A stretch of DNA of 56,488 bases from an uncultured Candidatus Saccharibacteria bacterium (GCA_964607655.1 CAZSKX010000004.1:1-56488), one strand, 5' to 3'; numbered from the stretch's first letter, positions 13,012 through 52,552 are shown. The notes: a model not told the origin generated them from the sequence alone. Translations and numbers: made by a program.

Positions 13012-13080
13012 AGCCTCTATTGTACCGCCGAAACAGAAAAACACCCCTGCCAGAGTCGGCCTGAGTGGTATGATGTCCGC

Positions 13081-21555: not shown

Positions 21556-22911
21556 CTATACAAGTAGTGAACGGATACTTTGAATCTCCTTTGCGAGCTC
21601 ACTATCCACAATCAAATCGTTCTTTATTTTCTCGCAAGAGTGGATAACAGTTGTGTGGTCACGACCACCAAGCTTCGCACCGATTGATGGATACGAAATA
21701 CGAAAATCTTCGCGCAAAAGGAACATGATCACTTGTCGCGGGCGCACCACCTCCCTTCTTCTGGTCTTCTCGTAGATACTGTCCTCATTAATACCGTAAA
21801 ATTCGGCAACTCGATCAACCACATTTTTAACTGAAATGGTTTTTTGAGGGCGAGTAAAGGAACGAAGTGACTGTCGAACCTCAGCGATGTCTGGAGGAGC
21901 CCCTTTTACCTGAGCGTGACAGACAATGTTGTTTACCATCCCTTCAAGTTCGCGAATAGAACCGGTCAAAGTTGTAGCAACATACTCCACAACCTCGTCA
22001 GAGAGCATAATGCCGTGCGAAGCGGCCTTCTTTCGCACAATTATCATGCGACTCTCGGGGTCAGGCTCGCCGATATCTATGGTCATACCGCTAGAGAAAC
22101 GACCTTTCAGGCGGTCAGCGATATCCGCAATCGCAACAGGAGCCCGATCTGAGGAGAAAATAATCTGCTTATTAGTATCATGGAGGGCATTAAAGAGGTG
22201 GAAGAGTTCCTCTTGAGTCTTATCCTTCTTTGATAAGAATTGCACATCGTCCATGATAAGAAGGTCATATTGGCGATACTTATCTTTGAAACGGTTTGCA
22301 GTCCCGGCCTGTACAGAATCGGTATAATCGATAACAAACTTCTCTGAGGTGAGATAAAACGCCTTCCGTCCCGGATACTGTTTCTTATACTGATTTCCTA
22401 TCGCCTGAATAAGGTGTGTTTTCCCCCGACCAGTCTCGCCGTAGATGAAGAGCGGGTTGTACGTAATACCTGGTCGTTCAATGGCTACCTGAGCTGCAGC
22501 GTGTGCAAGGTTGTTGAAAGAGCCAACCACGAACGTGTCGAAGGTGTAGCGGGGGTTTAAATTATCACTTTTATTTATGTAAAACTCGTTGAGTGGAAGC
22601 TCAACAGCGCCACGGATGGGTGTTTTTACTTCTCGCGCAGGCTTGCGACGCTCATCTTTAACGATCATATACTCAATATTTCTGAATTCATATGACACAT
22701 CACGGAAAATCTTGAGCAGGAGCGTGTGAAATTTCTTCAAATACCAATCCTTGAAGAACTGGCTTGGTACGCCGATGTACACCACCCCGTCCTCCCCCAC
22801 CTTAACGATATGGCTGCTACCGAACCAAGTGTTGAAATTTGCAGGAGAGATGGATAATTCAACCTGGGTAAGCACATACTCCCATAGTTCACGCGGATTC
22901 CCTTTATCCAT
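21556..22911 (-). CDS. dnaA: Chromosomal replication initiator DnaA
   Basis: GETGRGKTHL Walker A, LLIMDDVQFL Walker B and C-terminal domain IV (HTTVIHSCEKI). Confidence 0.95.
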   Translation of the reverse strand: MDKGNPRELWEYVLTQVELSISPANFNTWFGSSHIVKVGEDGVVYIGVPSQFFKDWYLKKFHTLLLKIFRDVSYEFRNIEYMIVKDERRKPAREVKTPIRGAVELPLNEFYINKSDNLNPRYTFDTFVVGSFNNLAHAAAQVAIERPGITYNPLFIYGETGRGKTHLIQAIGNQYKKQYPGRKAFYLTSEKFVIDYTDSVQAGTANRFKDKYRQYDLLIMDDVQFLSKKDKTQEELFHLFNALHDTNKQIIFSSDRAPVAIADIADRLKGRFSSGMTIDIGEPDPESRMIIVRKKAASHGIMLSDEVVEYVATTLTGSIRELEGMVNNIVCHAQVKGAPPDIAEVRQSLRSFTRPQKTISVKNVVDRVAEFYGINEDSIYEKTRRREVVRPRQVIMFLLREDFRISYPSIGAKLGGRDHTTVIHSCEKIKNDLIVDSELAKEIQSIRSLLV

Positions 22912-22998: not shown

Positions 22999-23139
22999 AT
23001 GGCCACAAAACGAACCTATCAGCCAAAGAAGCGTAAGCGCGCTAAGACCCATGGTTTCCGCGCCCGCACAGAGACCAGCTCAGGTCGCAAGATCGTCCGC
23101 CGCCGCCGCCGGATCGGTCGCGCTCGCCTCACGGTCTAA
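22999..23139 (+). CDS. rpmH: 50S ribosomal protein L34
   Basis: Translated by hand as [46 protein letters not shown]. It is too short for the ORF track, which lists an out-of-frame ORF at 22985-23287 instead. Confidence 0.93.
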
Positions 23140-23145
23140 TATCCC

Positions 23146-23448
23146 GTGTTTCCTCGTCGCGTACGGCTTGCCCGAGGCGATTTCGACACTGCAGCTCGAC
23201 GAGCGCTCCGGCGCTCGTCGCCTTGTTTTACCGTGCTTGTGTCCGCCCAAACACGAGGCTGTGCGGTGGTTGTCTCGAAAAAAGTAGCTCGCAAGGCGGT
23301 CGATCGCCATAGGCTCAAACGGCGGATCGTGGGGGCTCTGAAGAGCCTTCCGCTCCCCCGAGGGCTCATTGTGTATCCAAAAAAAGAAGCCAGCACGCTT
23401 TCGGCAAGCGAGATGCGGGCTGAGCTAGCTCAACTCCTTTCCCAATAA
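23146..23448 (+). CDS. rnpA: RNase P protein component
   Basis: Basic 100-aa protein with VSKKVARKAVDRHRLKRR (RNR-like motif), located immediately after rpmH. Confidence 0.85.
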   Translation: MFPRRVRLARGDFDTAARRALRRSSPCFTVLVSAQTRGCAVVVSKKVARKAVDRHRLKRRIVGALKSLPLPRGLIVYPKKEASTLSASEMRAELAQLLSQ

Positions 23449-23473: not shown

Positions 23474-24208
23474 GTGATCTCAGCTGTCTTCCACAGTGTT
23501 TTTTATAATCCGATCTATAACGCCCTCGTTGCGTTGGTGGCGCTTGTTCCCGGCTCAGACGTAGGAATAGCAATCATCATTCTGACCCTTATTATTCGGC
23601 TTATCCTGCTCCCCCTCTCGCTATCTGCAGCACGCACCCAACGGGTGATAAAGGACCTCGAGCCAAAAATCAAAGAATTAAAAGAGAAGCATAAGGGCGA
23701 TCGCGAGAAAGAGGCTGTCGAAACACTCGCTCTCTACCGCGAGGCTCAAGTGAACCCCTTTGCGAGCGTGGTTACTGTTTTTATACAGATTCCCGTCCTT
23801 TTGGCGCTCTACTTCGTGTTTCTGTATGAGCCGTTCACGACCGTTAATACTTCCCTTCTCTACGGGTTTACTCCCACTCCAGACGTCATTTCCTTAGAAT
23901 TCCTAGGAATCCTTTCAGTGATGAGCAAAAGCCTCGTACTCGCCGTTCTGGCAGGCATAACACAGTACCTCCAAGCAACCCTCGCCCTAAAAGGAACTCT
24001 CAAGCACGCTCCAACCACAGGGATGCAAGGAGATTTTCAACGAGTGCTTCAGGCGCAGCTTAAGTACGTGTTTCCGTTCATTATTGCAGCCATCTCCTAC
24101 ACCACATCGGGAGCGATCGCCCTCTACTTCGTAACAACCAACCTCGCAGGAGCTCTCCAGGAGTGGTATGTGCGCCGTGCCCTCACCCCTCAAGAAGTGG
24201 CTGCTTAG
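23474..24208 (+). CDS. yidC: Membrane protein insertase YidC (short form)
   Basis: Five-TM layout, ILLPLSL...Q and KGDREK...LYRE..VNP motifs, in the conserved rpmH-rnpA-yidC context. Confidence 0.88.
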   Translation: MISAVFHSVFYNPIYNALVALVALVPGSDVGIAIIILTLIIRLILLPLSLSAARTQRVIKDLEPKIKELKEKHKGDREKEAVETLALYREAQVNPFASVVTVFIQIPVLLALYFVFLYEPFTTVNTSLLYGFTPTPDVISLEFLGILSVMSKSLVLAVLAGITQYLQATLALKGTLKHAPTTGMQGDFQRVLQAQLKYVFPFIIAAISYTTSGAIALYFVTTNLAGALQEWYVRRALTPQEVAA

Positions 24209-25401
24209 AGTGAGTAACCCCAGAGCGAGCCGTCAGTTTTATTCACAAACGTAAGGAATTGGCCTCGAGAATCGAGAGATAGAGCGACAGCATCAACAGG
24301 ATTAGTGGTTTTTTTATTGAAATCGAGCACAAGCTGGGCAAAACGACCTTGCACATCTACCTTCCAAATCCGGTCAGAGAAAGAGATGGCGCCCTGATAC
24401 CAATCGTCAGGGTAGGCCGCACCCGCGGACGGGCTAATGGGTACCCCACAATACACACTAGACTCATCGCTAGCCCACACGCACTTATCAGCAATGGTCG
24501 CGAGCGGTAGCGGGAGCGTCTCGCGTGTCGAAACGTTTACGAGATAAAGATTAAGCCTTCCCTGTTCGGCGGTCGACACCAGAAGCCAGGCGCCAGAGGG
24601 GCTCGGGAGGGCCACTAGACCAGCCGACGGGCCCGCGATGCGGCTGAATTGGCCAGTACCATCCACCACGAAGGCGTTACCAAGCAGCGTCTGGGTCGGC
24701 TTGGTGAAGGCTATATACTTGTCCTTTCCAGCAAAGGCTACCCGTAGTTGAGTAAGAGGGGTGGTGAAGACGGTCGTCGCGCGCGAGCCATCAGGTCGAG
24801 CAACTGAGGCGACCGAGCCATTCACGCCAGTCGCGAGGTAAAGGATGCTCGTGCTCGAGACAGCAAGTGATGAAACGTTTTGTGGTAAGAAGAAACCGTC
24901 GACACCAGCAGCAGAAAGCGCATAAGTGTTAACAGTTGAAAAGTTGCTGCCAGAGAGATACTGAACAAAGGCGGTCGAGGCATTCGGTAGCCAGCTGGCT
25001 GTCATGACACCCGGCACGGTGCGGTTGCTGGTGCGAGAGACGCTGCCAGTCTGGGTATTGTAACGGAACACGTTACCACTCTTTCGTTCGATATAGTTCA
25101 CCATAAGCGGGGGCGTAGAAGTCCCGGCTGCTGGCCCAGGAGAAACCACAGTGCCGAGGGCCACCGGCCCACGGCTTATCTGTACCAGCCGAGGAGGTTT
25201 GGACCCGGGTCTGACTTCGGTGCCGTTCTCGTCTTCCGCTGATAAGGAAGGGGTGGTGCTCGTTGCGCTTCCTGATCCAGGAAGGGAGATGTCCGGCAAG
25301 GAAACAAGTGGGCTCTCGCCCCCAAAGAACAGCACATAGACAAATATTCCTATCCCGGCGAGGAGGATTAGAATAATCCCGAAGATAAGAGGTCGACGCA
25401 T
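24205..25401 (-). CDS. Membrane-anchored beta-rich (propeller-like) hypothetical protein
   Basis: N-terminal TM (LIFGIILILLAGIGIFVYVLFF), a Ser/Thr/Pro linker and then repeated beta-strand-rich segments. It is the last gene of the T4SS-like operon. Its stop overlaps the yidC stop (TTAG). Confidence 0.6.
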   Translation of the reverse strand: MRRPLIFGIILILLAGIGIFVYVLFFGGESPLVSLPDISLPGSGSATSTTPSLSAEDENGTEVRPGSKPPRLVQISRGPVALGTVVSPGPAAGTSTPPLMVNYIERKSGNVFRYNTQTGSVSRTSNRTVPGVMTASWLPNASTAFVQYLSGSNFSTVNTYALSAAGVDGFFLPQNVSSLAVSSTSILYLATGVNGSVASVARPDGSRATTVFTTPLTQLRVAFAGKDKYIAFTKPTQTLLGNAFVVDGTGQFSRIAGPSAGLVALPSPSGAWLLVSTAEQGRLNLYLVNVSTRETLPLPLATIADKCVWASDESSVYCGVPISPSAGAAYPDDWYQGAISFSDRIWKVDVQGRFAQLVLDFNKKTTNPVDAVALSLDSRGQFLTFVNKTDGSLWGYSL

Positions 25402-25404
25402 GAA

Positions 25405-26850
25405 TTAATCAATAGATCCACCGCACACAGTTGTTGATATGTTTTTTACACAAAGAGCATTGGTGCGGAGACACTTGGTGTTATTTAACGAACCCACCAC
25501 TGGAGTGCCTGGTGGGCACGCAAACTCAGTGGTTATGGAATTAGTTCCGATATCTGCCGCACACACGCTTCCACCATCGCGGATACACTGAGAACTAAAT
25601 TGTGAATATTGTGTAGATAAAGCCTGGGAAGCAGAATTCGAAAGCTCCAAAAGACTTAATTGCCAAATTACATCGAATATTCGCACGCTAGTAGTGGTGT
25701 AGAATTCGAAGATAGTACTCGAGTAAGAACCACAATAAGCTGTAAAGGTGACTGTGTCTCTGCACACACTTCGACCCTCGGCGTTGAGTACATATCCACT
25801 GCGGCAATAGTAGGTATCTTGACGCTGTAGAGTCCCAATATTATCTGCGGCAGCACAATTAGAGACAAATTCCTGGGCAGCCTCAGACGAAGGGCAGGTT
25901 GCCGTTTGTAGAAGTTGGCCTACGACGGTGCACCCAGTTTCTTCATCCAACACTCCGCTTCCAGGAGAAGGTGGACCTGGTTGGAGTTTGGTTAACCCAA
26001 TATTTAAACTCAGGATCGCAGGATTAATGATCGAGAATACGAGGAAAGGCGCGAAAACGAGAATTAAACCCTGGATCGCACGCATAATTCGGCTCTTGCT
26101 ATCGAGCAGGCTACTCACGCTATCGCGGTTCACAGCCATCTGGATGCCCCCCCAGATGATCTCAATGACCGCCGCCGCGGCAGCGATACCAAGGAGGTAT
26201 TTGTAGAGATTGTTTAGGAATTTGGCCAGTGTAGTGGAGTTCACGACGCTCGTTGAGCTGTTATCGGTGAGCCCAGGAATCGGGGCGAGGGCGCAAAACG
26301 GCGCATTCGGTGAGCAAGAGGCAGGTGGAGGTGGAGGTGTAGGTGGATCATCATCCCCATCAGCCACACAAGAGAGGTTGCTGTCGCAGCGACCGAGAAT
26401 GCTAGAAGCACCATCGCTAGCATCACACACATCCCCAACGGACTTGCCAATACAGGCAGTGTGAGCAGGATCATCAGCTACACAAGACAGAGTGTTAGTG
26501 CTGAAAGTATAGGTCGGGTCACTCACTATAGAATGTGATCCTGTGGCGCAATGGCCTGTTTGCGCATTTCCAGCGTCACATACTTGTCCGTTTGTTTTAT
26601 CCACACAAGCTGCAGCCACCCCAACAGGCTCTGGCAAAATACATTGGGTGTTAAAGGAAGTCTGCCCGGTTACGGCCACCTGAACATAGGATCCGCTTCT
26701 CGACTCACACCAGGTTCTTGCTGAGTCACAACCGCTACCAGGATCGCACCGCCCGGTTAAGGTCTCGCTTGCGAGGGCGGTCTGAGCAAAGGATACGCTC
26801 AAAACAAGAAGGGATGACAGTGTCAGCAATTTTCTAGAGAGCTTCATCAT
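25405..26850 (-). CDS. Secreted Cys-rich protein with a central T4SS-pilin-like two-helix core
   Basis: Signal peptide (LLVLSVSFAQTALA), an N-terminal domain with many Cys, a PPTPPPPP linker, then CALAPIPGL...LYKYLLGIAAAAAVIEIIWGGIQMAV...AIQGLILVFAPFLVFSIINP (two TM helices), then a second Cys-rich domain. Confidence 0.65.
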   Translation of the reverse strand: MMKLSRKLLTLSSLLVLSVSFAQTALASETLTGRCDPGSGCDSARTWCESRSGSYVQVAVTGQTSFNTQCILPEPVGVAAACVDKTNGQVCDAGNAQTGHCATGSHSIVSDPTYTFSTNTLSCVADDPAHTACIGKSVGDVCDASDGASSILGRCDSNLSCVADGDDDPPTPPPPPASCSPNAPFCALAPIPGLTDNSSTSVVNSTTLAKFLNNLYKYLLGIAAAAAVIEIIWGGIQMAVNRDSVSSLLDSKSRIMRAIQGLILVFAPFLVFSIINPAILSLNIGLTKLQPGPPSPGSGVLDEETGCTVVGQLLQTATCPSSEAAQEFVSNCAAADNIGTLQRQDTYYCRSGYVLNAEGRSVCRDTVTFTAYCGSYSSTIFEFYTTTSVRIFDVIWQLSLLELSNSASQALSTQYSQFSSQCIRDGGSVCAADIGTNSITTEFACPPGTPVVGSLNNTKCLRTNALCVKNISTTVCGGSID

Positions 26851-27836
26851 AGACCTAATATACCAAGCCCAGAGGGTGCGGCACCGAAGGAGAGGGACAG
26901 CTCTGTGCCCGCGAGCACCGACCCGCTACCCTTAGCCGAGAGTGAAAGCCGCGCCGCACCGGCCCCAGAACCAGTCGGTCGTAGCGTGATGAGGGGGCCA
27001 TTTTGAGCAAGGGAGCCGTTTAAGGACCAAGTAAGAGCGGGCTGTGAGACATTGGTTGGGAAAGAATACGGGGCAGCAAAAAGAGTTTTCTCCTTGCTGG
27101 CGACGCTATACGAGCCAGTAATAGCGCGATTAAAGAGTATCCCAAGCAGAGGGTCGCTCTCATAGACGCGCACGAGGGGCTCTTGGGCGGTTAACGTCAC
27201 CTTGCTGCCCCCTACGAGGGAGCCATCGGGCGCCGAGACAGTGACGGAGACATCGCGAGAGCGGTACTGAAGGGGTGAAGCCACGACGATAGTGGTCTTT
27301 CCAATGCCTGAAGAATTAAAAATGCGAGTGTCATCGACGACCCAGCTATAGGAGAGCGCTGTGGGGTTAATCGGAGTGCCAGCACTATTACGGAGGTTTG
27401 CTATAGCCACCACTCGAACAGCTCCCTCGAGAGGCACCAGCGGCTTCCCCGGATAGAGCGCGGGGGCAGAAGCGAGAGGTTCTACGACAAGGTTAAGCTC
27501 CTGGGGTCGGACAGAGATTGTTTTTGAAAAGCTTTTTCCATTGCTTACCATCACCACCTGTGCCGTGGTAAGGGTTCCCGCAGCCCCCAAGGTTATAGAG
27601 ACGGGCTTGGCGCTGCCCTTGTAGATAGATTTTCCGCCAACTATAACCTCCATGGTGGCGGTGCTGAGGTCGAGTGAGCCCGAGGTTGGGGTCAGGGTAA
27701 CGCGTCCATAAGGCGTTGGGTAGTTAGGGCTCACACCGACGGTGAAGACCTCAGTGCCAGGAAGGAGTTGGGCAAACGCTACCCCTGGGGACAAGACGAG
27801 TAGTCCAAGGATAAGGCGCGCGAGAAGAGAACGCAT
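26847..27836 (-). CDS. Secreted all-beta (Ig-like repeat?) hypothetical protein
   Basis: Signal peptide MRSLLARLILGLLVLSPGVAFAQ starting at the ATG at 27836. Composition is Ser/Thr/Gly/Val-rich. There is a 4-nt overlap with the downstream gene. Confidence 0.6.
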   Translation of the reverse strand: MRSLLARLILGLLVLSPGVAFAQLLPGTEVFTVGVSPNYPTPYGRVTLTPTSGSLDLSTATMEVIVGGKSIYKGSAKPVSITLGAAGTLTTAQVVMVSNGKSFSKTISVRPQELNLVVEPLASAPALYPGKPLVPLEGAVRVVAIANLRNSAGTPINPTALSYSWVVDDTRIFNSSGIGKTTIVVASPLQYRSRDVSVTVSAPDGSLVGGSKVTLTAQEPLVRVYESDPLLGILFNRAITGSYSVASKEKTLFAAPYSFPTNVSQPALTWSLNGSLAQNGPLITLRPTGSGAGAARLSLSAKGSGSVLAGTELSLSFGAAPSGLGILGL

Positions 27837-27864
27837 ACGATCTAAGTATATAACTTCTTTTGCC

Positions 27865-28815
27865 TCATTCCTTCGATTCTCCAGAATTCTCGGGGATTTC
27901 GTACGACTCCTTAATTGTGTGTTGCTGGAGCTTGTGTCTCCGGCGAGCCCGGGCAAGCTTCACCACGCGGGCCACATCACGCGAGAACGCGAGTTCCCCA
28001 TGGTATCGATTTCGAGCTGTATCATCGAGCTCGCGCTCTGCTTCTGCGTGAGCCACGGCGAGCGCAGCTGCTTCCGCAACTTTCTTCTCCTCTGCCTCTC
28101 TGGCGGCAGCTTCTTCCGCTCTCTGTTCCTCCTCTTTCTCCTTTTCCTGTGCCGCGCGCTCGGCAGCTTCCTCCTCCTCGGTGATCCGAGCCTCCTCTTC
28201 GGCTGTTGCAGCTTCTTCCTCGGCTGCAGCCGCTGCCTCAGCGACAGCCTGCGCTTCGGTGAGAGCCGCAAACCGAGCCTGCTGGTCGCGGATAAGCTGG
28301 GCCTGTTGCGCAGCTCTCCACTCCTGAAGACGTTTTTTATCGTGATGTATCTGGACGCGATACATATGGAAAGTGCGGAAGGTAAGGGCAGGAAGAGACC
28401 CAATGAAGGGCAACTCCATAATCCCTAGGGTAACGACAAGTTTAAAGAGTGCCGAGGCATTTTCTTTAAAAATACGGGGATTATTTAACATCAAAAAGAG
28501 CCAGACTGTCATCCACCCCGTAAGTCCAAGAAACATGGCAACAAAAGTGCCGAAAGAAAATAATGCCGGACTCAGAAAGTATCCCGCTCCAGCGGCAGCA
28601 GAGGCGCACAGGGCGCCCGTAACCTCTGAACCGAGCAAGTCACCCACGGCGCCCGCCTCAGAGAGGCAGGCGGCGGCGGCCACGACCGGGCCAAGTAGCC
28701 AAAACAAACTAAAAAAACCTCTTGCGACGTCAAACAACACGCAAACCAATAAGATGGGCGTTGCGCGCGGCCACGTCATCCCCTTAGGGGGGCTACTGCT
28801 TGCTCTCGGTATCAT
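27865..28815 (-). CDS. Polytopic membrane protein with a Glu/Ala-rich coiled-coil tail (VirB6-like role possible)
   Basis: About four hydrophobic helices in the first 150 aa, then about 110 aa of EEEAAxAEEE-type low complexity. The start is uncertain (28815 or 28779). Confidence 0.55.
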   Translation of the reverse strand: MIPRASSSPPKGMTWPRATPILLVCVLFDVARGFFSLFWLLGPVVAAAACLSEAGAVGDLLGSEVTGALCASAAAGAGYFLSPALFSFGTFVAMFLGLTGWMTVWLFLMLNNPRIFKENASALFKLVVTLGIMELPFIGSLPALTFRTFHMYRVQIHHDKKRLQEWRAAQQAQLIRDQQARFAALTEAQAVAEAAAAAEEEAATAEEEARITEEEEAAERAAQEKEKEEEQRAEEAAAREAEEKKVAEAAALAVAHAEAERELDDTARNRYHGELAFSRDVARVVKLARARRRHKLQQHTIKESYEIPENSGESKE

Positions 28816-30622
28816 GGCGGTCCTTCGCAGCCTTGATGGCGATCAGCTGTGAAGGATCAGAAGTGATGATCTGGTCCTCGGTATAGCTTGCTACAACCTT
28901 GATCGCGACGTGTTTGAGGCCAGCAAAGAAGAGCCCCTCCCCCACCCCAGCTTCAAGCAGGAGATATTTTTCTTCGTCGGTGAGGCTAAACGTTTCTTGA
29001 AGCACGTTGATTGTGGTTGGCGACTGCTTGAGCAAGAGCTGCATCGACGAGTTTGTCAGAATGGGTCGGCCATACGGGCTCTTCAAGAAGTCCTCAACGT
29101 CTTGCGTGATGGTGCAGACGCCAAGATAGTACTTACGACCTCGCTTCGCGAGCGAGTAGAGGAAGGATGCGGTGTCTTCGCTCTTCATCATCCACCACGC
29201 CTCATCGATAATAAGAAGGCGCTTGCGAATATCTCGACGCACCGCATTCCAGATGTAGTGCGTTACGATATACATCGCTACCGGCTTGAGCTCGTCTTCC
29301 ATATCACGGACCGAGAAGACTACGAACTGCTGCTTGATGTCGATGTTCGTTGCCTGGTTTAGGAAGCCCGCCCAGGTACCACGGGTATACTTCGAAAGGC
29401 GTTCGACGAGCGACTCGCTTCCCTCCATGCCGATGAGTACCTGCTCGAAGTCAGAGAGTAGTGGCGGTTCGGCACCTGTGAAGTCAGAGTCGCCCGTGAT
29501 GTCTTTAAGTGCGTAGGTCTCGCTGATGGCGCGGTCGACCAGGGCGTCCTCTTCTGGAGTGAGTCCTCCAGCCATGATGCGGAAGAGGCCCACGAGGTTA
29601 ATGATGTTAGACCGCAGAATGTCGCGCGGATCCTCGTCCTCCTTAACTGGAGGAAGGTCAAACGGGTTGATGTGGTGTTCAGACGAAAGCGAGATGTGGA
29701 ATGATCGGCCGCCAGTGGCCTCCACGAGCTGGTCATACTCGCGCTCAGGGTCGATCACGATCACGTCAGTACCAAACATGAGCGAGCGCAGAATCTCAAG
29801 CTTGGTGGTGTAACTCTTACCAGAACCCGACTTGGCAAAGATTACGGAGTTATAGTTCTCGAGCGAGTAGCGATCAAAGATGATGAGTGAGGAGTTGTGG
29901 CGGTTGATGCCATAGAGGATGCCTCGATCGCTCGTCAAGTCGAACGAAACGAATGGGAAAATTGAGGAGAGCGGCGAGGAGTTTAGTTTTGAGGTGACGA
30001 GGAGCTCGTCGGTACCGAGTGGTAGACAGGAGCGGAAGCCTTGTTCTTGCTGGAAGAGGGCCGGCTTAGTGTAGACGAGCTTTGAGTCGAGAATGCTGTG
30101 CACCGACCCTTCGATCTTGTCGATCTCCTCCTTCGAGTCGCCGTACACCGCTAAGTAGAGCCCCACATCGAACAACTTTTCCTGGGCTTGTTGGAGGCTG
30201 TCGCGTAGAGACTCAAGGTCTTGGTATGCGGTGTCGAGGAGTGGATCTCGCACCAGACCTTTCGCCTCGCGCTCGTTGATCTGGCTCTGGACCTCGGCCA
30301 CCTTCTTTTGGAAACCACGAAGCGCCACGTCGGTAGCAATCGGGTGGACAAAGATGGCGATATCCATGACCTTGTCGAGGTTGATGATCGGCGCAAACCA
30401 CCCGTCAGAAAGGAAGCGGGGATACGAGATGGTGTAAAAGCTGCGCACCAGCTTTTCACCGAGCTCGATCTCACGAGAGCCAATTTTGAGCGCTGTTGGG
30501 GCGATGACATCAACCAGGTTGAGTGGCTGCCCTATCGCAGCGTCTTTTGGTAGCACAGGAAGTACCGAGGTATCAATAGGTTTCGGACCCTGTTTTTTGT
30601 TAAAAAAGTCGAGGAGGGACAT
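28793..30622 (-). CDS. VirB4/TrbE/CagE-type T4SS ATPase
   Basis: Walker A IFAKSGSGKSYTTK, Walker B LLIIDEAWWMM and TITQDVEDF, with a VirB4-like N-domain (GWFAPIINL...DIAIFVHP). The ATG at 30622 lies 1 nt after the upstream stop. Confidence 0.85.
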   Translation of the reverse strand: MSLLDFFNKKQGPKPIDTSVLPVLPKDAAIGQPLNLVDVIAPTALKIGSREIELGEKLVRSFYTISYPRFLSDGWFAPIINLDKVMDIAIFVHPIATDVALRGFQKKVAEVQSQINEREAKGLVRDPLLDTAYQDLESLRDSLQQAQEKLFDVGLYLAVYGDSKEEIDKIEGSVHSILDSKLVYTKPALFQQEQGFRSCLPLGTDELLVTSKLNSSPLSSIFPFVSFDLTSDRGILYGINRHNSSLIIFDRYSLENYNSVIFAKSGSGKSYTTKLEILRSLMFGTDVIVIDPEREYDQLVEATGGRSFHISLSSEHHINPFDLPPVKEDEDPRDILRSNIINLVGLFRIMAGGLTPEEDALVDRAISETYALKDITGDSDFTGAEPPLLSDFEQVLIGMEGSESLVERLSKYTRGTWAGFLNQATNIDIKQQFVVFSVRDMEDELKPVAMYIVTHYIWNAVRRDIRKRLLIIDEAWWMMKSEDTASFLYSLAKRGRKYYLGVCTITQDVEDFLKSPYGRPILTNSSMQLLLKQSPTTINVLQETFSLTDEEKYLLLEAGVGEGLFFAGLKHVAIKVVASYTEDQIITSDPSQLIAIKAAKDRHDTESKQ

Positions 30623-30623
30623 A

Positions 30624-31253
30624 TTATTTATCAAGACGGATCGGATTCTCAAGCTCGCCGGGGTTGAAGGATCGGTAGAAGAGCTCGATCACCTCCTCAG
30701 TTCCGAGAGAGGCGGCCCGTACACCAGTGCCGGCAAGCCCGTCGGCAATGAGAGTCATGCGTTGCTGAAGTTGAATCTTGCTCTCCTCGAAAACATTCTC
30801 AGTAGCTGCCTTGCTGCTCGTGGTGAGACCAATAAAATTCGTTGCGGTGGAGGTAGAGACCTTGGGCGAATAAGGCACCACAACATAAAACGATTTAGTC
30901 ATGATGTTTGTTTGTTCGGTAAATGAGCTGATAAACGCAACATATTCACGCAACTGGATTTTCATGAGGTCGGTTTTTTGATCGGCGGCCTTGGTCTCAA
31001 GCAGCGCCAAATAGGGGCGGAGATCCATACGGCGTGAATTCACGATGATTTGCATAGAAAAATCGAGCGTGTTGAGAAAGTTCTGGAAGCCGAGCGTGAT
31101 GGCCCGTTGCTCGTCAATACTCTTCAGGCCAAAGTTGATCGAAGAGCAGATCAGAATTCCCCGATAGCTCCCGTCCTTAAGAAGGACAATGCCATCACGG
31201 ATGTCTTTTACCGGGACGAAGTCTTGCGTTGCGCCAGAGGGTTTAGTTGCCAT
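30624..31253 (-). CDS. Stand-alone protein resembling the N-terminal domain of Gram-positive VirB4 homologs
   Basis: QDFVPVKDIRDGIVLLKDGSYRGILICSSINFGLKSIDEQ... matches the N-terminal pattern of PrgJ/Orf16-type VirB4 proteins. No P-loop is present. Confidence 0.55.
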   Translation of the reverse strand: MATKPSGATQDFVPVKDIRDGIVLLKDGSYRGILICSSINFGLKSIDEQRAITLGFQNFLNTLDFSMQIIVNSRRMDLRPYLALLETKAADQKTDLMKIQLREYVAFISSFTEQTNIMTKSFYVVVPYSPKVSTSTATNFIGLTTSSKAATENVFEESKIQLQQRMTLIADGLAGTGVRAASLGTEEVIELFYRSFNPGELENPIRLDK

Positions 31254-31734
31254 GGTCGGATGGAGTAAGAACGATTGAGCCGTGCAGTATTTCCGGGCTG
31301 CGCTTCTCTTCACCCTGGGGCACATCGAGTGAAGACGCGAGCTCGCTCAGTCTTCCTCTGGTGAGCCGTGGTATGGCAGCCTGGGCAACTGCTGCCTCGG
31401 CCTCTGCGGCGGCTTTCTTCGCAGCCGCAGCTGCGGAGGTCGCCGTCTTATCGCTTTTGTGCTGCCAGAGGAAAAACTTGGCTCCGATGTAATAGTTAAA
31501 ACCAGCCTCAAGAACTTCAACGAAGGGTTTACCATTGATTTTATAGAACGAGAGTGCGCCGCCGAGGGCTATCGTCGGTATGCTCAACAGAACTCCAGGC
31601 AGAAGGGGGAGTTTGAAGAAAAAAACAATACACAAACCGATCGTGCCGGCGATATAGATAAACTGCTTCAGCGTAAGCGGTCCAACAATCTTATCTTCTA
31701 CTTCAATAAATTGAGGTACCTGATACTCCATCAC
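31243..31734 (-). CDS. PrgI-family (VirB3-like) membrane protein
   Basis: YQVPQFIEVEDKIVGPLTLKQFIYI followed by two TM helices, then an Ala-rich tail. Confidence 0.65.
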   Translation of the reverse strand: MMEYQVPQFIEVEDKIVGPLTLKQFIYIAGTIGLCIVFFFKLPLLPGVLLSIPTIALGGALSFYKINGKPFVEVLEAGFNYYIGAKFFLWQHKSDKTATSAAAAAKKAAAEAEAAVAQAAIPRLTRGRLSELASSLDVPQGEEKRSPEILHGSIVLTPSDHGN

Positions 31735-31790: not shown

Positions 31791-32420
31791 TTATTGCCCG
31801 ATGATCAAGGTTGAAATGTTTAGGACAAGAATATAAAACGGTCTTGCCAAGAACGAGGAGAAAACAAAGAGGAATATAATAAGGGCAAATATACCCGACT
31901 GGCGCACCTGATCTTCAAACTGTTGTAGACGATAACCCGCACGCCAAGGAAGAAGGGCGCGAAGCGCAGTAAAACCGTCGAGCGGAGGGAACGGTATTAA
32001 GTTGAACAGGCCGAGGAAGAGGTTTGCAAAAGAAATAACTGAGGCAATAAGAAGGGCTGGCTCAGGAAGACCCGCCCCGTATCGCACAATGAGCCCGAAG
32101 ATAACGGCGAGGGCGATGTTTGTCGCGCTTCCGGCGAGGGCCACGGCAGCCTCGGCCCACCGACGATTGTGCAGGTTGTAGGGGTTATAAGGCACGGGTC
32201 TGGCCCAGCCGAAAAGGATGTTAGCAGGAGACAGAACTCCTAAAAGCGGCACAAGTATTGAACCAACTGGGTCAATGTGTGGAATTGGGTTTAACGTAAG
32301 GCGTCCAGCTAGGCGAGCTGTCGGGTCGCCAAGGGAGTTTGCCGCATAGCCGTGGGCGACTTCGTGGAGAATGATCGAGAGGATAAGGATGACAAGATAG
32401 GTCAGGTCGAGAGGGGTCAT
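31791..32420 (-). CDS. Site-2 protease family (M50) zinc metalloprotease
   Basis: HEVAHGY (HExxH) inside a TM helix. The protein is polytopic and has a later LDG motif. Confidence 0.8.
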   Translation of the reverse strand: MTPLDLTYLVILILSIILHEVAHGYAANSLGDPTARLAGRLTLNPIPHIDPVGSILVPLLGVLSPANILFGWARPVPYNPYNLHNRRWAEAAVALAGSATNIALAVIFGLIVRYGAGLPEPALLIASVISFANLFLGLFNLIPFPPLDGFTALRALLPWRAGYRLQQFEDQVRQSGIFALIIFLFVFSSFLARPFYILVLNISTLIIGQ

Positions 32421-32765: not shown

Positions 32766-33377
32766 ATGACCTACATCGCAAAAACCTTCAACCTCCCTGC
32801 CCTGCCGGGGATTTCAGACAAACAAGTCCAGGTGCACCTTGCCCTCTACGAAGGCTACGTCAAGCATGTAAACCTGATCATGGAGAAGCTGGGTGCGGTA
32901 CGAGCTGGGCAGCTCGAGCTCGATCCGTACATTGTGGCAGAGCTTCGTCGCCGATTTGCGTTTGAATTCGATGGGATGCGAATGCACGAGTATTACTTTG
33001 AACAGCTCGAAGGAGGAAGTGTTGCGCAAGCGGCCGAGAGCAAGTTCGTTCAAGCGGCCGCAGAAAAATATGGTAGCAGCGAGAATTTTGTCGCACACCT
33101 TAAAGAGGTTGCCGGAACCCGTGGCATTGGTTGGGTGGTGGTATATGCCGACCCTCGTACGCGTGGCGGCCTCCATACGGTTTTCGTTGCCGACCATGAA
33201 CTTGGGCAACTTGCAGGCCTCCCTATCGTGCTCGCCCTCGACCTCTGGGAGCATGCGTACATGGTCGACTATGTGCCGGCAGACAAAAAGAGCTACGTGG
33301 ACGCTTTTTTTGCCAATGCTAACTGGTCAGTTGTCGAGAAGCGTTTTGATGACGCGATAAAAACGAGTGCTGCATAG
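32766..33377 (+). CDS. Fe/Mn-family superoxide dismutase
   Basis: LPGISDKQVQVHLALYEGY... and DLWEHAYMVDY carry the metal ligand motifs. Confidence 0.85.
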   Translation: MTYIAKTFNLPALPGISDKQVQVHLALYEGYVKHVNLIMEKLGAVRAGQLELDPYIVAELRRRFAFEFDGMRMHEYYFEQLEGGSVAQAAESKFVQAAAEKYGSSENFVAHLKEVAGTRGIGWVVVYADPRTRGGLHTVFVADHELGQLAGLPIVLALDLWEHAYMVDYVPADKKSYVDAFFANANWSVVEKRFDDAIKTSAA

Positions 33378-34825
33378 GCAGCGACAACCCACAGAAACGA
33401 GAATGCAGGAATGATACGCGCGGCGCCAGGGAGCGCCGCGCTTTCAGTCGCAATAAAGATTATGTAGCGAGTGAGAAGATCAGCGGGTATTGAAAGAACC
33501 TCTCCTAGAAGCGTGAACGTTGAAGCGAAGATTGCGCCACTCACTCCAGCGAGCGCTGCAGCGGCCATCGCGAGCGGTGTTACAACAACGACAAGCAAGT
33601 TTGCTGGGAGCGCGACAAGCGAGAGATTTCCCGTGTTGTAGAGGAGGAGCGGAAGTACGCCCGTTTGTGCAGCTAACGTTGTCGCGACAGCTTGTAACCA
33701 AAAGAATTGCAGTTTGCTTGGCGCACCTCTACCCAAGCGTGTGCGTGCATGCAAGAGCGCGCTTTCGAATAATGGTGAGAGCCAGATGAGCCCCGCTGTC
33801 GCCGCAACAGAGAGACCAAAACCCGGATCGTAGAGAAGGTAGAGCGGATTCCAGATAAGCATGAGGAGTATTGCAACAAAGAGCGCGCGACTTGCCGCAT
33901 ATGTGCGGCCGGTTGCGCGTGCGTAGAGCGCGATGAGTGCCATGAGGGTTGCGCGTACGGCTGTTGCTGAGAATCCTGCAATGCCAACAAACAGGAGTAA
34001 AGCGCCTGCGCCTGCGACCGCGCGTACGCGTCGAGAAGTCGTCATAAGGGCAAGTAAGGCCATCATCCATTCGGCCACGACCATGACGTTGTAGCCGGAG
34101 AGTACGATGACGTGCACGAGACCGCTGGTGATAAAGGAGTCACGGAGCGCCTGACTTAATCCAGTACGACCCCCGATCACGATGCCGCCCGCGAGCGCCG
34201 CGCCTTCTTTGGGCAAGGTCTCCTCAAGTCCGTGCAAGAAGCTGTGTTTGATACGGGCGAGACTTGCCGGAAGTGAGTACCACGGGGCAGGCTCTATAAG
34301 TTGTAGTGCTGCGAAATTTAATAAAAAGCGGATACCATCTTTTTCTAAATATTTATCGTAGCGAAAGACGCGTCCACCGTCGGTGTCGAAAGGCTGTGGT
34401 CGGGTGAGAATGCCCGAGACGTAAATGCGATCCCCGACTCTCACGATCGGTGCCAGCTCGGCCACAGCGAGGATGGTAGTTGTCTCGCTGCCTCGCGTAA
34501 CCCGTATTGCCACACGTTGACTCTTCTCTCGCACATCAGGATCAGTGACGACGACGCCCGTGTAGGTGACACGCTGACGCACATCTTCGGCAAACGCTTT
34601 CGGTAAAGGAGACTCAGCGTAGTGCGCTCGAAGAATGCCGAGCACCACAAACGCGCAAAAGATTCCTGCGAGGCGGAACCATTTCCACCCTCTCCAGCGA
34701 TATGCGGCCGTAGCCGCACCGAAGAGGAGTAGAAAAATAAATGTCACTAATCCACCCGAAACGAAAAGCGAGCGGAGGAATACCCCGCTCGCAAATCCAG
34801 AAACCAGCGTAAGAAGGATATTCAT
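33293..34825 (-). CDS. comEC: ComEC/Rec2 DNA internalisation channel (no metallo-beta-lactamase domain)
   Basis: N-terminal TM plus an OB-like region, then a polytopic competence domain (SGLVHVIVLSGYNV). It ends at 510 aa with no HxHxDH motif. Confidence 0.82.
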   Translation of the reverse strand: MNILLTLVSGFASGVFLRSLFVSGGLVTFIFLLLFGAATAAYRWRGWKWFRLAGIFCAFVVLGILRAHYAESPLPKAFAEDVRQRVTYTGVVVTDPDVREKSQRVAIRVTRGSETTTILAVAELAPIVRVGDRIYVSGILTRPQPFDTDGGRVFRYDKYLEKDGIRFLLNFAALQLIEPAPWYSLPASLARIKHSFLHGLEETLPKEGAALAGGIVIGGRTGLSQALRDSFITSGLVHVIVLSGYNVMVVAEWMMALLALMTTSRRVRAVAGAGALLLFVGIAGFSATAVRATLMALIALYARATGRTYAASRALFVAILLMLIWNPLYLLYDPGFGLSVAATAGLIWLSPLFESALLHARTRLGRGAPSKLQFFWLQAVATTLAAQTGVLPLLLYNTGNLSLVALPANLLVVVVTPLAMAAAALAGVSGAIFASTFTLLGEVLSIPADLLTRYIIFIATESAALPGAARIIPAFSFLWVVAAYAALVFIASSKRFSTTDQLALAKKAST

Positions 34826-35259
34826 GCGCCGCGGTCCATCGCCTCGTTGGCGAGCGCGTCAGCGTCAGCGTTCTGCGCGCGTGGAACATGCATAAACTGC
34901 ACGCGGCCAAAGGGTGCGAGTGCCGTACCGAGACGCAGGAACTGTTCTTTTAACACAGGGTGTTTCACCTTATATTCTTTTTTTACTTGTTTGACTACGA
35001 GCTCGCTGTCCATCTTCACGTCGACGGAGACACTCCCCCACTGCTCCTGAGGCACAATTTTTTGTAACGTTTGAAATGCAAGAATCACCGATTCGTACTC
35101 GGCGTAATTATTGGTGCGTATACCTAAGAACTGTGAGACGGTCGCCACAAGGCCACCACTCTCGTCACGGATCACTGCGCCAGAGCCCGCGGGCCCAGGA
35201 TTGCCGCGAGAGCCGCCGTCGCCATGGATTGTGAAATGCATGCGGAGAGTATACCGCAC
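34822..35259 (-). CDS. rnhA: Ribonuclease HI
   Basis: IHGDGGSRGNPGPAGSG...NNYAEYESV...NADADALAN. The start may be 35241. Confidence 0.85.
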   Translation of the reverse strand: MRYTLRMHFTIHGDGGSRGNPGPAGSGAVIRDESGGLVATVSQFLGIRTNNYAEYESVILAFQTLQKIVPQEQWGSVSVDVKMDSELVVKQVKKEYKVKHPVLKEQFLRLGTALAPFGRVQFMHVPRAQNADADALANEAMDRGA

Positions 35260-35274
35260 CAGGCGTAGAACGTT

Positions 35275-36996
35275 TTACACGGCTTTGAGCTTAAGTAGGC
35301 GAAGCCGTACCGGCTGACCGCGAGAAAACAGATCGCGCTCGAGGTGGGCCAATAGGTTGACGTGTGCACCAGAAGGAAGTGCAAGTGCGGTGTGCGCGAG
35401 CGAGCCTTTAGCAAAGAAGACTATGGCGTCGATATTTTTTTCACCACCTGCGATTGTTAGTTTCAGATGCTCAGAACCTTTGCCAAATTGAGACACGGCC
35501 TGTACGACAGCGTCACGGACGAAAAATATCGGCTTAGGATTTTCCATGCCGAAGGGTGCGAGTTTCTCAAGGTGCTTTAGAAGGGTAAGGTCGATCTCTT
35601 CTGGAGTGATCACAGCGTCAGCGTGCTCAGAAAAATCATCGAGTACGTTCTGCTTCGCGACCACCTGCGCGTGAGCGTGGGCGAGTCGGTCTTCGAGATC
35701 GAATACCGCAGTTTCGCGGACAGTGAAACCTCCCGCAGCGGCGTGACCTCCAAACTCTACAAAGGTATCGACCGCCGTCTGCATGAGCTCGAGAGCGTGC
35801 ACGCCAGCACTTCGCACCGAGCCTTTGGTGCTTCCGTTCCCTTCTCTTCCCCAGAGGAAGACAGGTCGATCGTATTCTTCTGCGATCCCATTGGCTACGA
35901 GTCCGAGTAGTGCCGGCCGCCACGAGGGATCACCGAGTGCGATGACGCTCTGCAGCTCAGATCGTGCTTTGAGTCGTTCGTGTACCGCGCGAGTGATCGC
36001 GCCGGCCTCGGCCTTACGCTTTCGATTCGCGGCTTCGAGTTTCTTCGCGAGGGTGTCCGCGAGATCCTCATCAGAGGTGGTGAGTAAATGAAACGCGTCG
36101 AACGCGTCACCCATACGACTCGCAGCATTCACCCGCGGGGCGATCATGAAGCCGACATCGTCTTCAGAAATGAATCGCTGGTTCACACGCGTAACACGAC
36201 AGAGCTTCTGAAGCCCTAGTCGCGGCGACTTACGCATCACGAGAAGTCCGTAGGTCGCGAGTACGCGATTTTCACCAGTGAGTGGAACCATGTCAGCGAT
36301 GGTGGCGAGGCCGACCATGTCGAGCAACCACTTCTCCCATCCTCCTCCGACGCGTTCGCGAAGTTCGGGCGACACATCGAGCGTGGCGCACACGAGCTTC
36401 CATGCGACGCCGCTTCCACAGAGACTTTTAAATGGATACGGCTCGTCGGCACGTGCGTTTGGGTTCACAACGGCGTATGCGTCAGGGAGACCCTCTGCCG
36501 AGGGCAAGTGATGGTCAGTAACGATGACATCAACCCCGAGCTCTTTTGCTCGCGCGACAGCTTCGAGATCTGTGATCCCAGAGTCGACGGTGACGATGAG
36601 TGTGGCGCCTTGCTTGGCGAGCTTTTCGATACCTGCGACGTTTACCCCGTATCCCTCGAGGTGGCGATGTGGAATATAGTTTTCAAAATTTGCACCAGCC
36701 TTTTTTAAAAAATCGTGCAGTAACACTGCGCCCGGGACCCCGTCGCAATCGTAGTCGCTCCACACAACAATTTTTTCCTTATCAATAATTGCCCGTGCGA
36801 ACCGTTCAGCCGCCTTCGGCATATCCGTCATCAAGAGCGGGTCGTGGAGGTGGAGGTCATACGAAGGATTCAAAAATGCATCAGCGCCTTCGGCGCTCGT
36901 CACCCCACGGCGATGCAGTAGGGCTGATATAAGATCATCGTATTCACGTAAGGCTTCACGGACCTCGTCACCCAGCGATTCGTGAAGCGGAAACAT
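35275..36996 (-). CDS. recJ: Single-stranded-DNA-specific exonuclease RecJ
   Basis: DHH motifs (DYDCDGV, VTDHH) and DHHA1 GGHAAAGG. Confidence 0.92.
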   Translation of the reverse strand: MFPLHESLGDEVREALREYDDLISALLHRRGVTSAEGADAFLNPSYDLHLHDPLLMTDMPKAAERFARAIIDKEKIVVWSDYDCDGVPGAVLLHDFLKKAGANFENYIPHRHLEGYGVNVAGIEKLAKQGATLIVTVDSGITDLEAVARAKELGVDVIVTDHHLPSAEGLPDAYAVVNPNARADEPYPFKSLCGSGVAWKLVCATLDVSPELRERVGGGWEKWLLDMVGLATIADMVPLTGENRVLATYGLLVMRKSPRLGLQKLCRVTRVNQRFISEDDVGFMIAPRVNAASRMGDAFDAFHLLTTSDEDLADTLAKKLEAANRKRKAEAGAITRAVHERLKARSELQSVIALGDPSWRPALLGLVANGIAEEYDRPVFLWGREGNGSTKGSVRSAGVHALELMQTAVDTFVEFGGHAAAGGFTVRETAVFDLEDRLAHAHAQVVAKQNVLDDFSEHADAVITPEEIDLTLLKHLEKLAPFGMENPKPIFFVRDAVVQAVSQFGKGSEHLKLTIAGGEKNIDAIVFFAKGSLAHTALALPSGAHVNLLAHLERDLFSRGQPVRLRLLKLKAV

Positions 36997-40598: not shown

Positions 40599-41155
40599 AG
40601 GTTGCTGTTACGGAGCGTGGCCGTGCCCGACAAGGTAAGTGGTGGGGGCGAGCGCTGGGCGTCAATATCAGTGACGAGGGTCATCGTTACTGATTTAATT
40701 AGATTAGTAGTTACGGGATCGGTAAGCTCCACCCCAGAAGCGTTGTAATACTGAAAGATTGGAGTTGAGGTGCTGTTGCGCACAAAGGCGGAGATGGTGG
40801 CACTGGTTTCACTTCCGGTAGATAAGGTCACGGTACGAGTGATCGTAGAGCCCGCGAGCACGTATGCTACGGTGTCGACCGCCCCGTCGTCATCCACATC
40901 AGCCCAGAAAGCGATCGATGAGGTTGCAGCCTCGGTGATTGGAGAGGACCCGTCACTCCCCTGCGACGCCTCGCGTAGATAGCGCACTGTATCCTCGATG
41001 CCACGTCGCGCCTCGAAAACCGCGCTCCCCTGCTGAAAGAGAAAAGCGTTCGTGCGATAAAAAGAAATGAGAACTGAGCCAAGGACACCCATAATAAGGC
41101 TCGTGAGCCCCACCACGACAAGAGTTTCTACTAAGGTAAGTCCAGCGTTCTTCAT
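40595..41155 (-). CDS. Type IV pilin-like (minor pilin/pseudopilin) protein
   Basis: Prepilin signal MKNAG/LTLVETLVVVGL, with Gly at -1 and Glu at +5. Confidence 0.75.
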   Translation of the reverse strand: MKNAGLTLVETLVVVGLTSLIMGVLGSVLISFYRTNAFLFQQGSAVFEARRGIEDTVRYLREASQGSDGSSPITEAATSSIAFWADVDDDGAVDTVAYVLAGSTITRTVTLSTGSETSATISAFVRNSTSTPIFQYYNASGVELTDPVTTNLIKSVTMTLVTDIDAQRSPPPLTLSGTATLRNSNL

Positions 41156-41604: not shown

Positions 41605-41640
41605 GAAAACAGTATAGCGCGTGTTCAGTATGTGTTGTGT

Positions 41641-42861: not shown

Positions 42862-42863
42862 AG

Positions 42864-44612: not shown

Positions 44613-44630
44613 AGTATCTAAAGTATAACG

Positions 44631-44662
44631 CAACGGCGGCACCGTAAGAGGTGCCGCCGTTG
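44631..44662 (-). terminator. 13-bp stem hairpin between hup and pilB
   Basis: CAACGGCGGCACC-GTAAGA-GGTGCCGCCGTTG with no clear U-tract. It may act as an attenuator or partial terminator. Confidence 0.45.
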
Positions 44663-52502: not shown

Positions 52503-52537
52503 AAATAGACGATGAAATTGTCCAATTTCTAGTAAGA

Positions 52538-52552
52538 TAATACATTGTATTA
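52538..52552. promoter_or_regulatory. Perfect palindrome TAATACA-T-TGTATTA, candidate operator
   Basis: Lies in the AT-rich divergent region between TrmB-3 and the 310-aa ORF. Confidence 0.35.

Follow-up and report, generated by a model that had tools for sequence, protein, structure and literature searches.

The 56,488-nt contig of an uncultured Candidatus Saccharibacteria bacterium (GCA_964607655.1, CAZSKX010000004.1), the whole of which is called the window below, carries at 24205-31734 on its minus strand a tightly packed run of seven co-directional open reading frames (ORFs), here numbered g1 to g7, with a VirB4 ATPase at its centre. The question raised by this locus is whether it encodes a minimal type IV secretion system (T4SS) of an unfamiliar kind, a piece of a conjugative element, or part of a system that is already known. 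We consider it to be, with a probability of about 0.8-0.9, the origin-proximal half of the chromosomal and vertically inherited T4SS of the Patescibacteria clade, whose VirB4 belongs within the monoderm MPF-FATA class. This system was described between 2023 and 2025; hence the interpretation offered in an earlier note on this DNA, namely a non-conjugative core machine for host interaction, is correct but has already been published.

Considering the most plausible start codons, the junctions between successive genes from g1 to g7 are -11, +1, -23, +28, -4, and +3 nt, which agrees with the overlaps or gaps of at most 30 nt that had been reported before. The earlier note counted eight genes, whereas its range and its own list contain only seven; the eighth co-directional gene encodes an M50 peptidase (31791-32420) and lies outside the cluster. 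From gene spacing only, we infer that g1-g7 are co-transcribed. Counts of sigma-70-like promoters and terminators are at shuffle background and are therefore uninformative either way.

The first three genes encode the motor and its membrane partner. The g1 product (31243-31734, minus strand, as for all seven genes) is a small membrane protein with two transmembrane (TM) helices and an Ala/Glu-rich tail, which matches the Pfam PrgI family (E 7.5e-8, 33.3 bits against a cutoff of 27) and also, weakly, TcpE; its real start codon is probably one of the ATGs at 31731 and 31728, which are preceded by an AAGGTG Shine-Dalgarno sequence. The g2 product (30624-31253, 209 aa) is a TrsD-like protein corresponding to a free-standing VirB4 N-terminal domain. 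It matches the NCBIfam TrsD/TraD family (E 1.6e-4) and covers positions 2-164 of the NCBIfam CD1110 VirB4 model, while positions 185-733 of the same model are covered by g3; being complementary in this way, g2 and g3 together constitute one split VirB4. A separate ORF for g2 is present in 79 of 80 related loci, its ortholog in locus L084 matches the Pfam TraC-like family PF26593, and a phmmer comparison with the equivalent gene of Pontibacillus gives an E value of 1.5e-28. The g3 product (28793-30622, 609 aa) is a VirB4 ATPase of the MPF-FATA type (NCBIfam conju_CD1110, E 1.2e-110, 371 bits against a cutoff of 325) with a Pfam TraG P-loop domain (2e-26) and intact Walker A (AKSGSGKS) and Walker B (LLIIDE) motifs, and its best solved relative in the PDB is the C-terminal domain of Thermoanaerobacter VirB4 (4AG5, 4e-43). 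Profile searches thus uphold the PrgI/VirB3-like protein, the protein consisting of a VirB4 N-terminal domain only and the 609-aa VirB4 ATPase that had been proposed from the sequence, as they do the T4SS pilin discussed below. The identity of g3 to VirB4 of the best 80 Paceibacteria-type metagenome-assembled genomes (MAGs) is 72-88% and does not exceed 35.5% for any of 3,576 plasmid VirB4 proteins, among which the best matches come from Bacillota and Actinomycetota. Such nearest-neighbour identity strongly suggests that g3 falls within the monophyletic Patescibacteria VirB4 clade.

At least 541 VirB4 relatives were found with one genome per species, and the best 80 loci, all from Paceibacteria, Kaiserbacteria, or Parcubacteria-type MAGs, were compared with the window. 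By tblastn, g1 was matched in 77 of these loci, g2 in 79, g3 in all 80, g5 in 75, g6 (the pilin) in 46, g7 in 66, yidC in 64, and dnaA in 60, the unmatched genes being missing mostly because contigs are truncated. The order g1-g2-g3-g5-g7-yidC-dnaA is collinear in every one of the 56 Paceibacteria loci that have all of these genes. In the most distant group (within L041-L080), median identity to the window is 74% for VirB4, 54% for DnaA, and 34% for DnaN, and the extracellular products of g5, g6, and g7, which diverge fastest, fall to about 28-31%. This comparison indicates strong purifying selection on the motor and fast evolution of the exposed parts. The fixed order and the conserved VirB4 imply that the locus is an ancient, vertically inherited core feature and not an integrated element, and a core cellular role can be argued because VirB4 is more conserved than DnaA across Paceibacteria.

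The genomic surroundings agree with this view. The convergent yidC gene (23474-24208, plus strand, Pfam) overlaps the end of g7 by 4 nt, and beyond it lie rnpA (23146-23448, plus strand, Pfam), rpmH (22999-23139, plus strand, an ORF), dnaA (21556-22911, minus strand, Pfam), and dnaN; on the other side are the M50 peptidase gene and rpmB, so that the cluster is indeed embedded among core genes. The minimum of the cumulative GC skew lies at 22-24 kb, which places the replication origin region here. A Pfam scan of 46 flanking ORFs, comprising all those of at least 300 aa, most smaller ones, and the immediate neighbors, recognised housekeeping proteins only (among them ClpB, PolA, RuvABC, PBP1, RecJ, ComEC, RNase Y, NusA, ClpP, and glycolytic enzymes, as well as two type IV pilus ATPases and PilC) and detected no VirD4-type coupling protein (T4CP), relaxase, VirB8/9/10 homolog, or peptidoglycan hydrolase, just as had been claimed. 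More specifically, no VirB1-type hydrolase (lysozyme, SLT, CHAP, or M23), VirB8 family member, or VirB7, VirB9, or VirB10 protein (ComB-type core proteins) was found in the window, and no integrase or repeats were found on the contig. The GC content over the cluster (bins at 24-32 kb) is 0.51-0.55, inside the range of the window. With no relaxase or T4CP found on the 56-kb contig and a site fixed beside oriC, the statement that the set does not look like a transfer module of a plasmid or of an integrative and conjugative element is well founded.

These features are those of a published system. Quinonero-Coronel et al. (2025) reported a monophyletic Patescibacteria VirB4 clade nested in MPF-FATA in 2,407 of 3,035 genomes, associated with TrsD, PrgI/VirB3, VirB6, and VirB2-like pilins and located, in Paceibacteria and Microgenomatia, near dnaA, dnaN, rnpA, rpmH, and ksgA (PMC12102498). 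The present locus shares with that system the MPF-FATA VirB4, the adjacent TrsD-like, PrgI/VirB3, and VirB2-like pilin genes, the lack of a relaxase or T4CP nearby, and the chromosomal position beside dnaA, dnaN, rnpA, and rpmH; in its relatives, ksgA is likewise found with the VirB6 half. It does not differ from the published system in kind. Beyond the main text of that paper, which makes no mention of a propeller, are the three conserved proteins encoded downstream of VirB4, namely a three-Ig (immunoglobulin-like) protein, a beta-propeller protein, and a small polytopic one, the proteins around VirB6 (TSP3-repeat, ~560-aa, and ~268-aa), and the separation of the two cluster halves by ~38 kb in the Kaiserbacteria-like clade of the window. 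Using transposon sequencing, Wang et al. (2023) found the Saccharimonadia T4SS (SEML1_0004-0019) and its pilin array to be essential for epibiotic growth and reported no recognisable coupling or relaxase proteins for it (PMC10633639), and the proposal that the cluster is the best candidate in the window for a host-interaction machine agrees with this essentiality of a homologue. The T4SS of Southlakia epibionticum ML1 in that study likewise lies beside dnaA/dnaN and contains PrgI, TrsD-like, VirB4, and VirB2-like pilin genes, as well as exported beta-sandwich proteins downstream of VirB4, without a recognisable relaxase or T4CP in the cluster. However, S. epibionticum alone has a pair of giant VirB6-like proteins, an NTF2 (VirB8-like) protein, enzymes of the lysozyme/CHAP and DD-peptidase types, and an array of six small pilins, whereas the window has one large Cys-rich pilin, a beta-propeller protein, and a small polytopic protein, with no hydrolase or NTF2 protein. 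A 2025 review described this machine as the first T4SS essential for its own carrier bacterium and speculated about a pilus conduit (PMC12857230), and a 2026 preprint reported host-penetrating tubular structures, uptake of host RNA, and a phylum-wide monophyletic VirB4 (bioRxiv 10.64898/2026.06.21.733656).

The earlier note called the operon minimal, a description that the relatives contradict, as they carry an extended VirB6 and three further conserved genes directly upstream of PrgI and the window's own clade has this block elsewhere. L019 and the relatives at greater distance encode, upstream of PrgI, a 700-1085-aa protein for which 7-10 TM segments are predicted; this extended VirB6 matches Pfam TrbL in L021 (31.5 bits, cutoff 25.9) and TrbL_4 in L019 (29 bits, cutoff 27). 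The full ancestral order is ksgA, a TSP3-repeat protein (~345 aa), a ~560-aa protein, the extended VirB6, a ~268-aa protein, PrgI, TrsD, VirB4, (g4), the three-Ig protein, the pilin, and the propeller protein. Among the three unknown proteins of this block, the TSP3 repeat is the only Pfam or PDB match, and the ~268-aa and ~560-aa proteins flanking VirB6 have no PDB sequence relatives and no Pfam family. Upstream of PrgI, VirB6 was detected in 49 of the 80 loci and ksgA in 43. Among the 22 closest loci, 21 either show the same upstream flank as the window (M50-rpmB-SOD-comEC, with SOD for superoxide dismutase) or lie on contigs too short to show it, and these 21 do not have the VirB6 block within 10 kb; no match to the block was found in the window either. 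A scan for VirB6 relatives with a single protein matched the query alone, and the clade of the window was not among the matches listed for a broad alignment. A targeted scan with a narrower alignment detected the detached block (from ksgA to the ~268-aa protein gene) in 14 assemblies that belong to the clade of the window. Four of these have the block on the same contig as the VirB4 half and in opposite orientation (L169/L003, L185/L007, L199/L011, and L238/L012). The start of ksgA is ~38 kb from that of PrgI in three of these (JACRFL010000002, JAHFMR010000002, and CAZJKG010000003); the fetched locus of CALRBA010000007 is without ksgA, and its TSP3-repeat gene lies ~36.7 kb from PrgI. A single inversion of ~45 kb close to the origin, one of whose breakpoints would separate the ~268-aa gene from PrgI, apparently explains the split. 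Upstream of g1 the window extends for no more than 24.7 kb, which puts the expected second half ~14 kb past the contig end, and since the flanks of the detached VirB6 blocks have no genes in common with the window, the window does not reach it. Thus, the lack of VirB6 is true of the window but probably not a property of the system, and the apparent minimality is probably a window-edge artefact.

Further observations concern the detached block itself. The uvrD gene adjoins it, and in L089, one of the further loci with this block (L088-L091, L102, and L134), it lies beside rpsL-rpsG-fusA; a ~640-aa gene next to the block, considered as a possible coupling protein, encodes UvrD. Relatives of the Paceibacteria extended VirB6 were also observed in L245 (JBLNCF010000007.1, 'Bacillota bacterium MAG132') and L247 ('Victivallales'), at 30% and 49% identity, and these are either mis-binned Candidate Phyla Radiation (CPR) contigs or real occurrences outside the phylum.

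Between VirB4 and yidC the cluster encodes three envelope proteins (g4, g5, and g7), none of which belongs to a Pfam or NCBIfam family, in addition to the pilin. The folds of g5 and g7 were modelled with AlphaFold2 from 60-sequence alignments. The g5 product (26847-27836, 329 aa) is a Sec-secreted protein whose model (predicted local distance difference test score, pLDDT, 81) consists of a signal peptide and three tandem Ig/fibronectin type III (FnIII)-like beta-sandwich domains, consistent with the signal-peptide all-beta protein noted before; in Foldseek searches of the PDB it returned generic multi-Ig matches only (SGBP-B, GhpA, CD22, and fibronectin). The g7 product (24205-25401) is a bitopic membrane protein, modelled with a pLDDT of 84 and a predicted template modelling score (pTM) of 0.78 as an N-terminal TM helix (aa 3-26) that leads through a disordered Ser/Thr/Pro linker (27-66) to a 7-bladed beta-propeller that is predicted to be on the extracellular side, which bears out the earlier description of a membrane-anchored propeller-like protein. 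Its Foldseek matches are likewise generic propellers, headed by oligogalacturonate lyase, TolB, tricorn, and WD40 proteins. The g7 family comprises at least 1,440 representative clusters (50% identity) at E<=1e-30, nearly all full-length among the matches listed. It was found in 66 of the 80 loci, always just ahead of convergent yidC, and three sampled distant members have the same gene context. For g5 and g7, candidate identities as VirB8-, VirB9-, or VirB5-like proteins were rejected on the basis of these generic Ig and propeller matches, and their folds also show that they are not NTF2 proteins.

The g4 product (27865-28815, 316 aa) is, as the earlier note had recognised, a polytopic membrane protein; it is small and ends in a Glu/Ala-rich tail. 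A positional ortholog follows VirB4 in ~57 of the 80 loci, and the alignment of these orthologs shows an invariant Asp in the first TM segment and the motif E-x-I-P-x-x-N-A-x-P-A-x-T in the last one. The window protein is longer than its orthologs: these have 110-180 aa, to which it adds a Gly/Ala-rich hydrophobic hairpin and a much longer Glu/Ala-rich tail (aa 45-85 and 180-300). About 20 of the 80 related loci have no g4-type gene after VirB4, and the component is therefore dispensable or relocated in some lineages. Judging from these alignments, g4 is an undescribed, fast-evolving family. We considered g4 as a VirB6, and this was rejected: neither the window protein nor 18 positional orthologs have a Pfam match, a profile search of the PDB was empty, g4 aa 1-163 had no match in a word-indexed protein database, and the real VirB6 is the different 700-1085-aa protein upstream of PrgI in relatives. 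The g4, g5, and g7 profiles are also without counterpart in the Clostridium conjugative and Pontibacillus clusters, which speaks against regarding g5 and g7 as VirB-type parts. None of the three can be equated with a named T4SS component, and the three-Ig, propeller, and g4 families appear undescribed as T4SS partners, no description having been found in the literature.

The pilin, g6 (25405-26850, 481 aa), has a Sec signal peptide and a VirB2-like core between Cys-rich extensions. Residues 197-267 match Pfam TrbC/VirB2 (31.7 bits, cutoff 27.9) and T4SS_pilin (26.7 bits, cutoff 26.6), and the core as a whole (aa ~185-290) contains the motif F-C-A-L-A-P-I-P-G-L-T and two TM helices, so that the pilin-like core previously suspected in a Cys-rich protein is real. 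Of its 26 Cys residues, 13 lie in an N-terminal extension of 157 aa and 12 in a C-terminal extension of 191 aa, and the length of both extensions varies among orthologs. A hidden Markov model (HMM) of the pilin core, built from an alignment with 26 g6 orthologs, matches g6 alone in the window, and no second pilin was found there. The corresponding motif F/Y-V-P-L-A-P-I-P-G-L-T (the mature end) is normally located directly after the signal peptide but is 157 residues further in in g6, where it is preceded by the 13-Cys domain with short repeated C-x-D-x-C-like units. Pilins of other species (L003, L022, L030, and L059 were compared) have unrelated N-extensions of 50-210 aa, and in L059 the motif is duplicated. 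Such extensions look like hypervariable cassettes.

Outside Patescibacteria, the closest comparisons are with Gram-positive conjugative MPF-FATA systems (CTn2/CD1110), which have a VirB4 28-35% identical to g3 and a PrgI, and the split into TrsD and VirB4 is as in the Trs systems of pGO1/pSK41 and the Tra system of pIP501. PrgI is also common to the Clostridium botulinum pCDC3875 cluster, whereas a VirD4-like T4CP, a CD1112 VirB6, a full-length VirB4, an SLT hydrolase, and a MOBP relaxase are found only in the latter. Gram-positive conjugative clusters of this type have, on a plasmid, a hydrolase (SLT or amidase) and a MOB relaxase besides the VirD4-like T4CP and the CD1112 VirB6, but no VirB2-like pilin, Ig protein, or propeller, and the g4, g5, and g7 profiles have no match in them. 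The best VirB4 match outside CPR (34% identical) is on the megaplasmid NZ_CP062975 of Pontibacillus sp. ALD_SL1 (L081, 351-361 kb). This cluster resembles that of the window in its split VirB4 (2e-113), its TrsD-like gene (1.5e-28), the absence of a relaxase (the record is typed as non-mobilizable), and a pilin-like ORF of the Mbov_0395 family, next to which another ORF matches g6 at 4.7e-6; it differs in having a 779-aa membrane protein and a 1050-aa DD-metalloendopeptidase, in having no Ig protein or propeller, and in lying beside flagellar genes. These similarities are hints that VirB2-like pilins and relaxase-less monoderm T4SSs may also exist outside Patescibacteria.

Several other observations were made along the contig. 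GC content falls to 0.45 at 20-22 kb, at dnaN-dnaA/rpmH-rnpA-yidC. By skew, leading-strand replication on the right-hand side of the origin falls to the plus strand; the minus-strand T4SS operon is thus head-on to replication, an orientation that is unusual for a strongly conserved operon. A minus-strand run of comEC (with DUF4131 and Competence domains), an RNase H-like gene, and recJ occupies 33293-36996, 1.5 kb upstream of the T4SS half-cluster, and the comEC ORF overlaps a convergent SOD gene by ~85 nt. Two genes for type IV pilus assembly ATPases (T2SSE/PilB-like) are located within 12994-14751 (plus strand) and 39372-44642 (minus strand), the second being followed by pilC (41641-42861) and by three ORFs without a Pfam family (41152-41604, 40595-41155, and 39372-40598), which may encode pilins or assembly proteins; both filament systems implicated in CPR host attachment are therefore present on one contig. 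Finally, four paralogs of ~240-270 aa with an N-terminal TrmB-type helix-turn-helix and no recognised C-terminal domain (2791-3555, 46665-47468, and 51774-52571, all on the minus strand, and 54571-55296 on the plus strand) are many for 56 kb of a reduced genome.

In established T4SSs, VirB3 anchors VirB4, VirB4 extracts the VirB2 pilin from the membrane, and VirB6 serves as the assembly platform, and pilus biogenesis in Agrobacterium needs VirB4 but not the coupling protein VirD4. By analogy, the pilin would be inserted into the membrane by Sec/YidC, and a VirB3-anchored VirB4 hexamer would extract it and feed a VirB2-type filament or tube on the VirB6 platform. The extracellular, host-facing part would be made up of the Cys-rich pilin extensions, the Ig protein, and the propeller, and the filament would touch or penetrate the host bacterium for adhesion and/or the macromolecule exchange needed for epibiotic growth; its function would not be relaxase-dependent conjugation. 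We give this pilus or host-contact mechanism roughly even odds. A more specific version, in which the Paceibacteria envelope module (propeller, three-Ig protein, Asp/Pro-motif membrane protein, and a pilin bearing hypervariable, disulfide-rich domains) would replace the VirB1/VirB8 of other monoderm systems and, together with the VirB6 half, build a tube for uptake of host macromolecules (RNA), is tentative and would have to be regarded as improbable for now; if true, the module would represent a new outer T4SS architecture and provide a molecular handle on CPR feeding.

Two alternatives refine this host-contact explanation rather than exclude it, and they differ in the direction of transport. 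The T4SS tube might work inward, as in archaeal Ced or Helicobacter pylori ComB, and import host RNA, DNA, or nucleotides into a nucleotide-auxotrophic cell. Ced and ComB are without a relaxase, and neither a relaxase nor a coupling protein was found in the window; the preprint mentioned above links uptake of host RNA with putative T4SS tubes and the phylum-monophyletic VirB4 (bioRxiv 10.64898/2026.06.21.733656). The weak similarity of g3 to CedB and CedD also points in this direction, but the NCBIfam scores are far under the cutoffs (36 against 700 bits and 27 against 600 bits), no CedB/CedA set above cutoff and no ComB6-10-type core proteins were found in the window, and no nucleic-acid-binding component was identified in the cluster. 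The same ambivalence applies to the comEC-RNase H-recJ run 1.5 kb upstream (33293-36996): comEC adjoins the T4SS only in the closest 18 of the 80 loci, and the 2025 review states that deletion of comEC in S. epibionticum abolishes competence but not viability (PMC12857230, citing PMC10633639), so that the essentiality of the T4SS does not act through ComEC. Import as the main function therefore seems doubtful to us. Somewhat less probable still is the export of effectors, by which the machine would inject or release proteins that manipulate or lyse the host bacterium, as pathogen T4SSs and the 89K element of Streptococcus suis do. The T4SS architecture with secreted and surface proteins in one operon would suit such a role, protein export has been suggested as an option (PMC10633639), and two papers cite exporters lacking a T4CP, Bordetella Ptl and Brucella VirB (PMC12102498, PMC12857230). 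However, the window yielded no candidate effector, chaperone, or T4CP, the cluster proteins with signal peptides would leave through Sec and not through the T4SS, and the cluster content is invariant over hundreds of species whereas effector repertoires usually vary.

A different explanation would be an ordinary conjugation module, with its relaxase, oriT, and coupling protein at other genomic sites, or else the decayed remnant of an integrated conjugative element; VirB4, PrgI, and TrsD are indeed homologous to Gram-positive conjugation parts. In many Patescibacteria VirD4-like genes are located far from virB4, and 109 relaxases were detected in 103 genomes, although relaxases are missing from ~97% of the genomes surveyed and S. 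epibionticum has a T4CP that is not essential (PMC12102498). Arguments against this explanation are the strict vertical inheritance at one oriC-side chromosomal site (56 of 56 loci), conservation of VirB4 above that of DnaA, the failure to find an integrase, repeats, or a relaxase on the contig, and a GC content within the range of the window; nor would purifying selection act so strongly on a remnant. We regard this explanation as very improbable.

Some points weigh against our own interpretation as a Patescibacteria-clade T4SS acting in host contact. Placement of g3 in that clade comes from nearest-neighbour identity, and we infer the second half-cluster of this genome from relatives. VirD4-like homologues are found elsewhere in most Patescibacteria genomes (PMC12102498), so a distant coupling protein is possible. 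Experimental evidence of essentiality comes from the Saccharimonadia homologue only, which has a different accessory set (lysozymes, an NTF2 protein, and a six-pilin array). What g4, g5, and g7 do is guessed from their topology and fold. As a 481-aa pilin with large domains at both ends, g6 could be a minor or tip subunit, or non-assembling.

Anyhow, the Patescibacteria T4SS is biologically important, being near-universal in its phylum and essential in the single species tested. The locus does not represent a new kind of system, since the features that define it appeared in print in 2023-2025. Where one CPR contig shows a "minimal T4SS", caution is advisable, given that the VirB6 half lies ~38 kb away in this clade. 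What the finding retains in value lies in the propeller, three-Ig, and small membrane protein families, which are large, unannotated, and strictly co-inherited with the T4SS, and which offer concrete starting points for structural and genetic studies of the apparatus that contacts the host.

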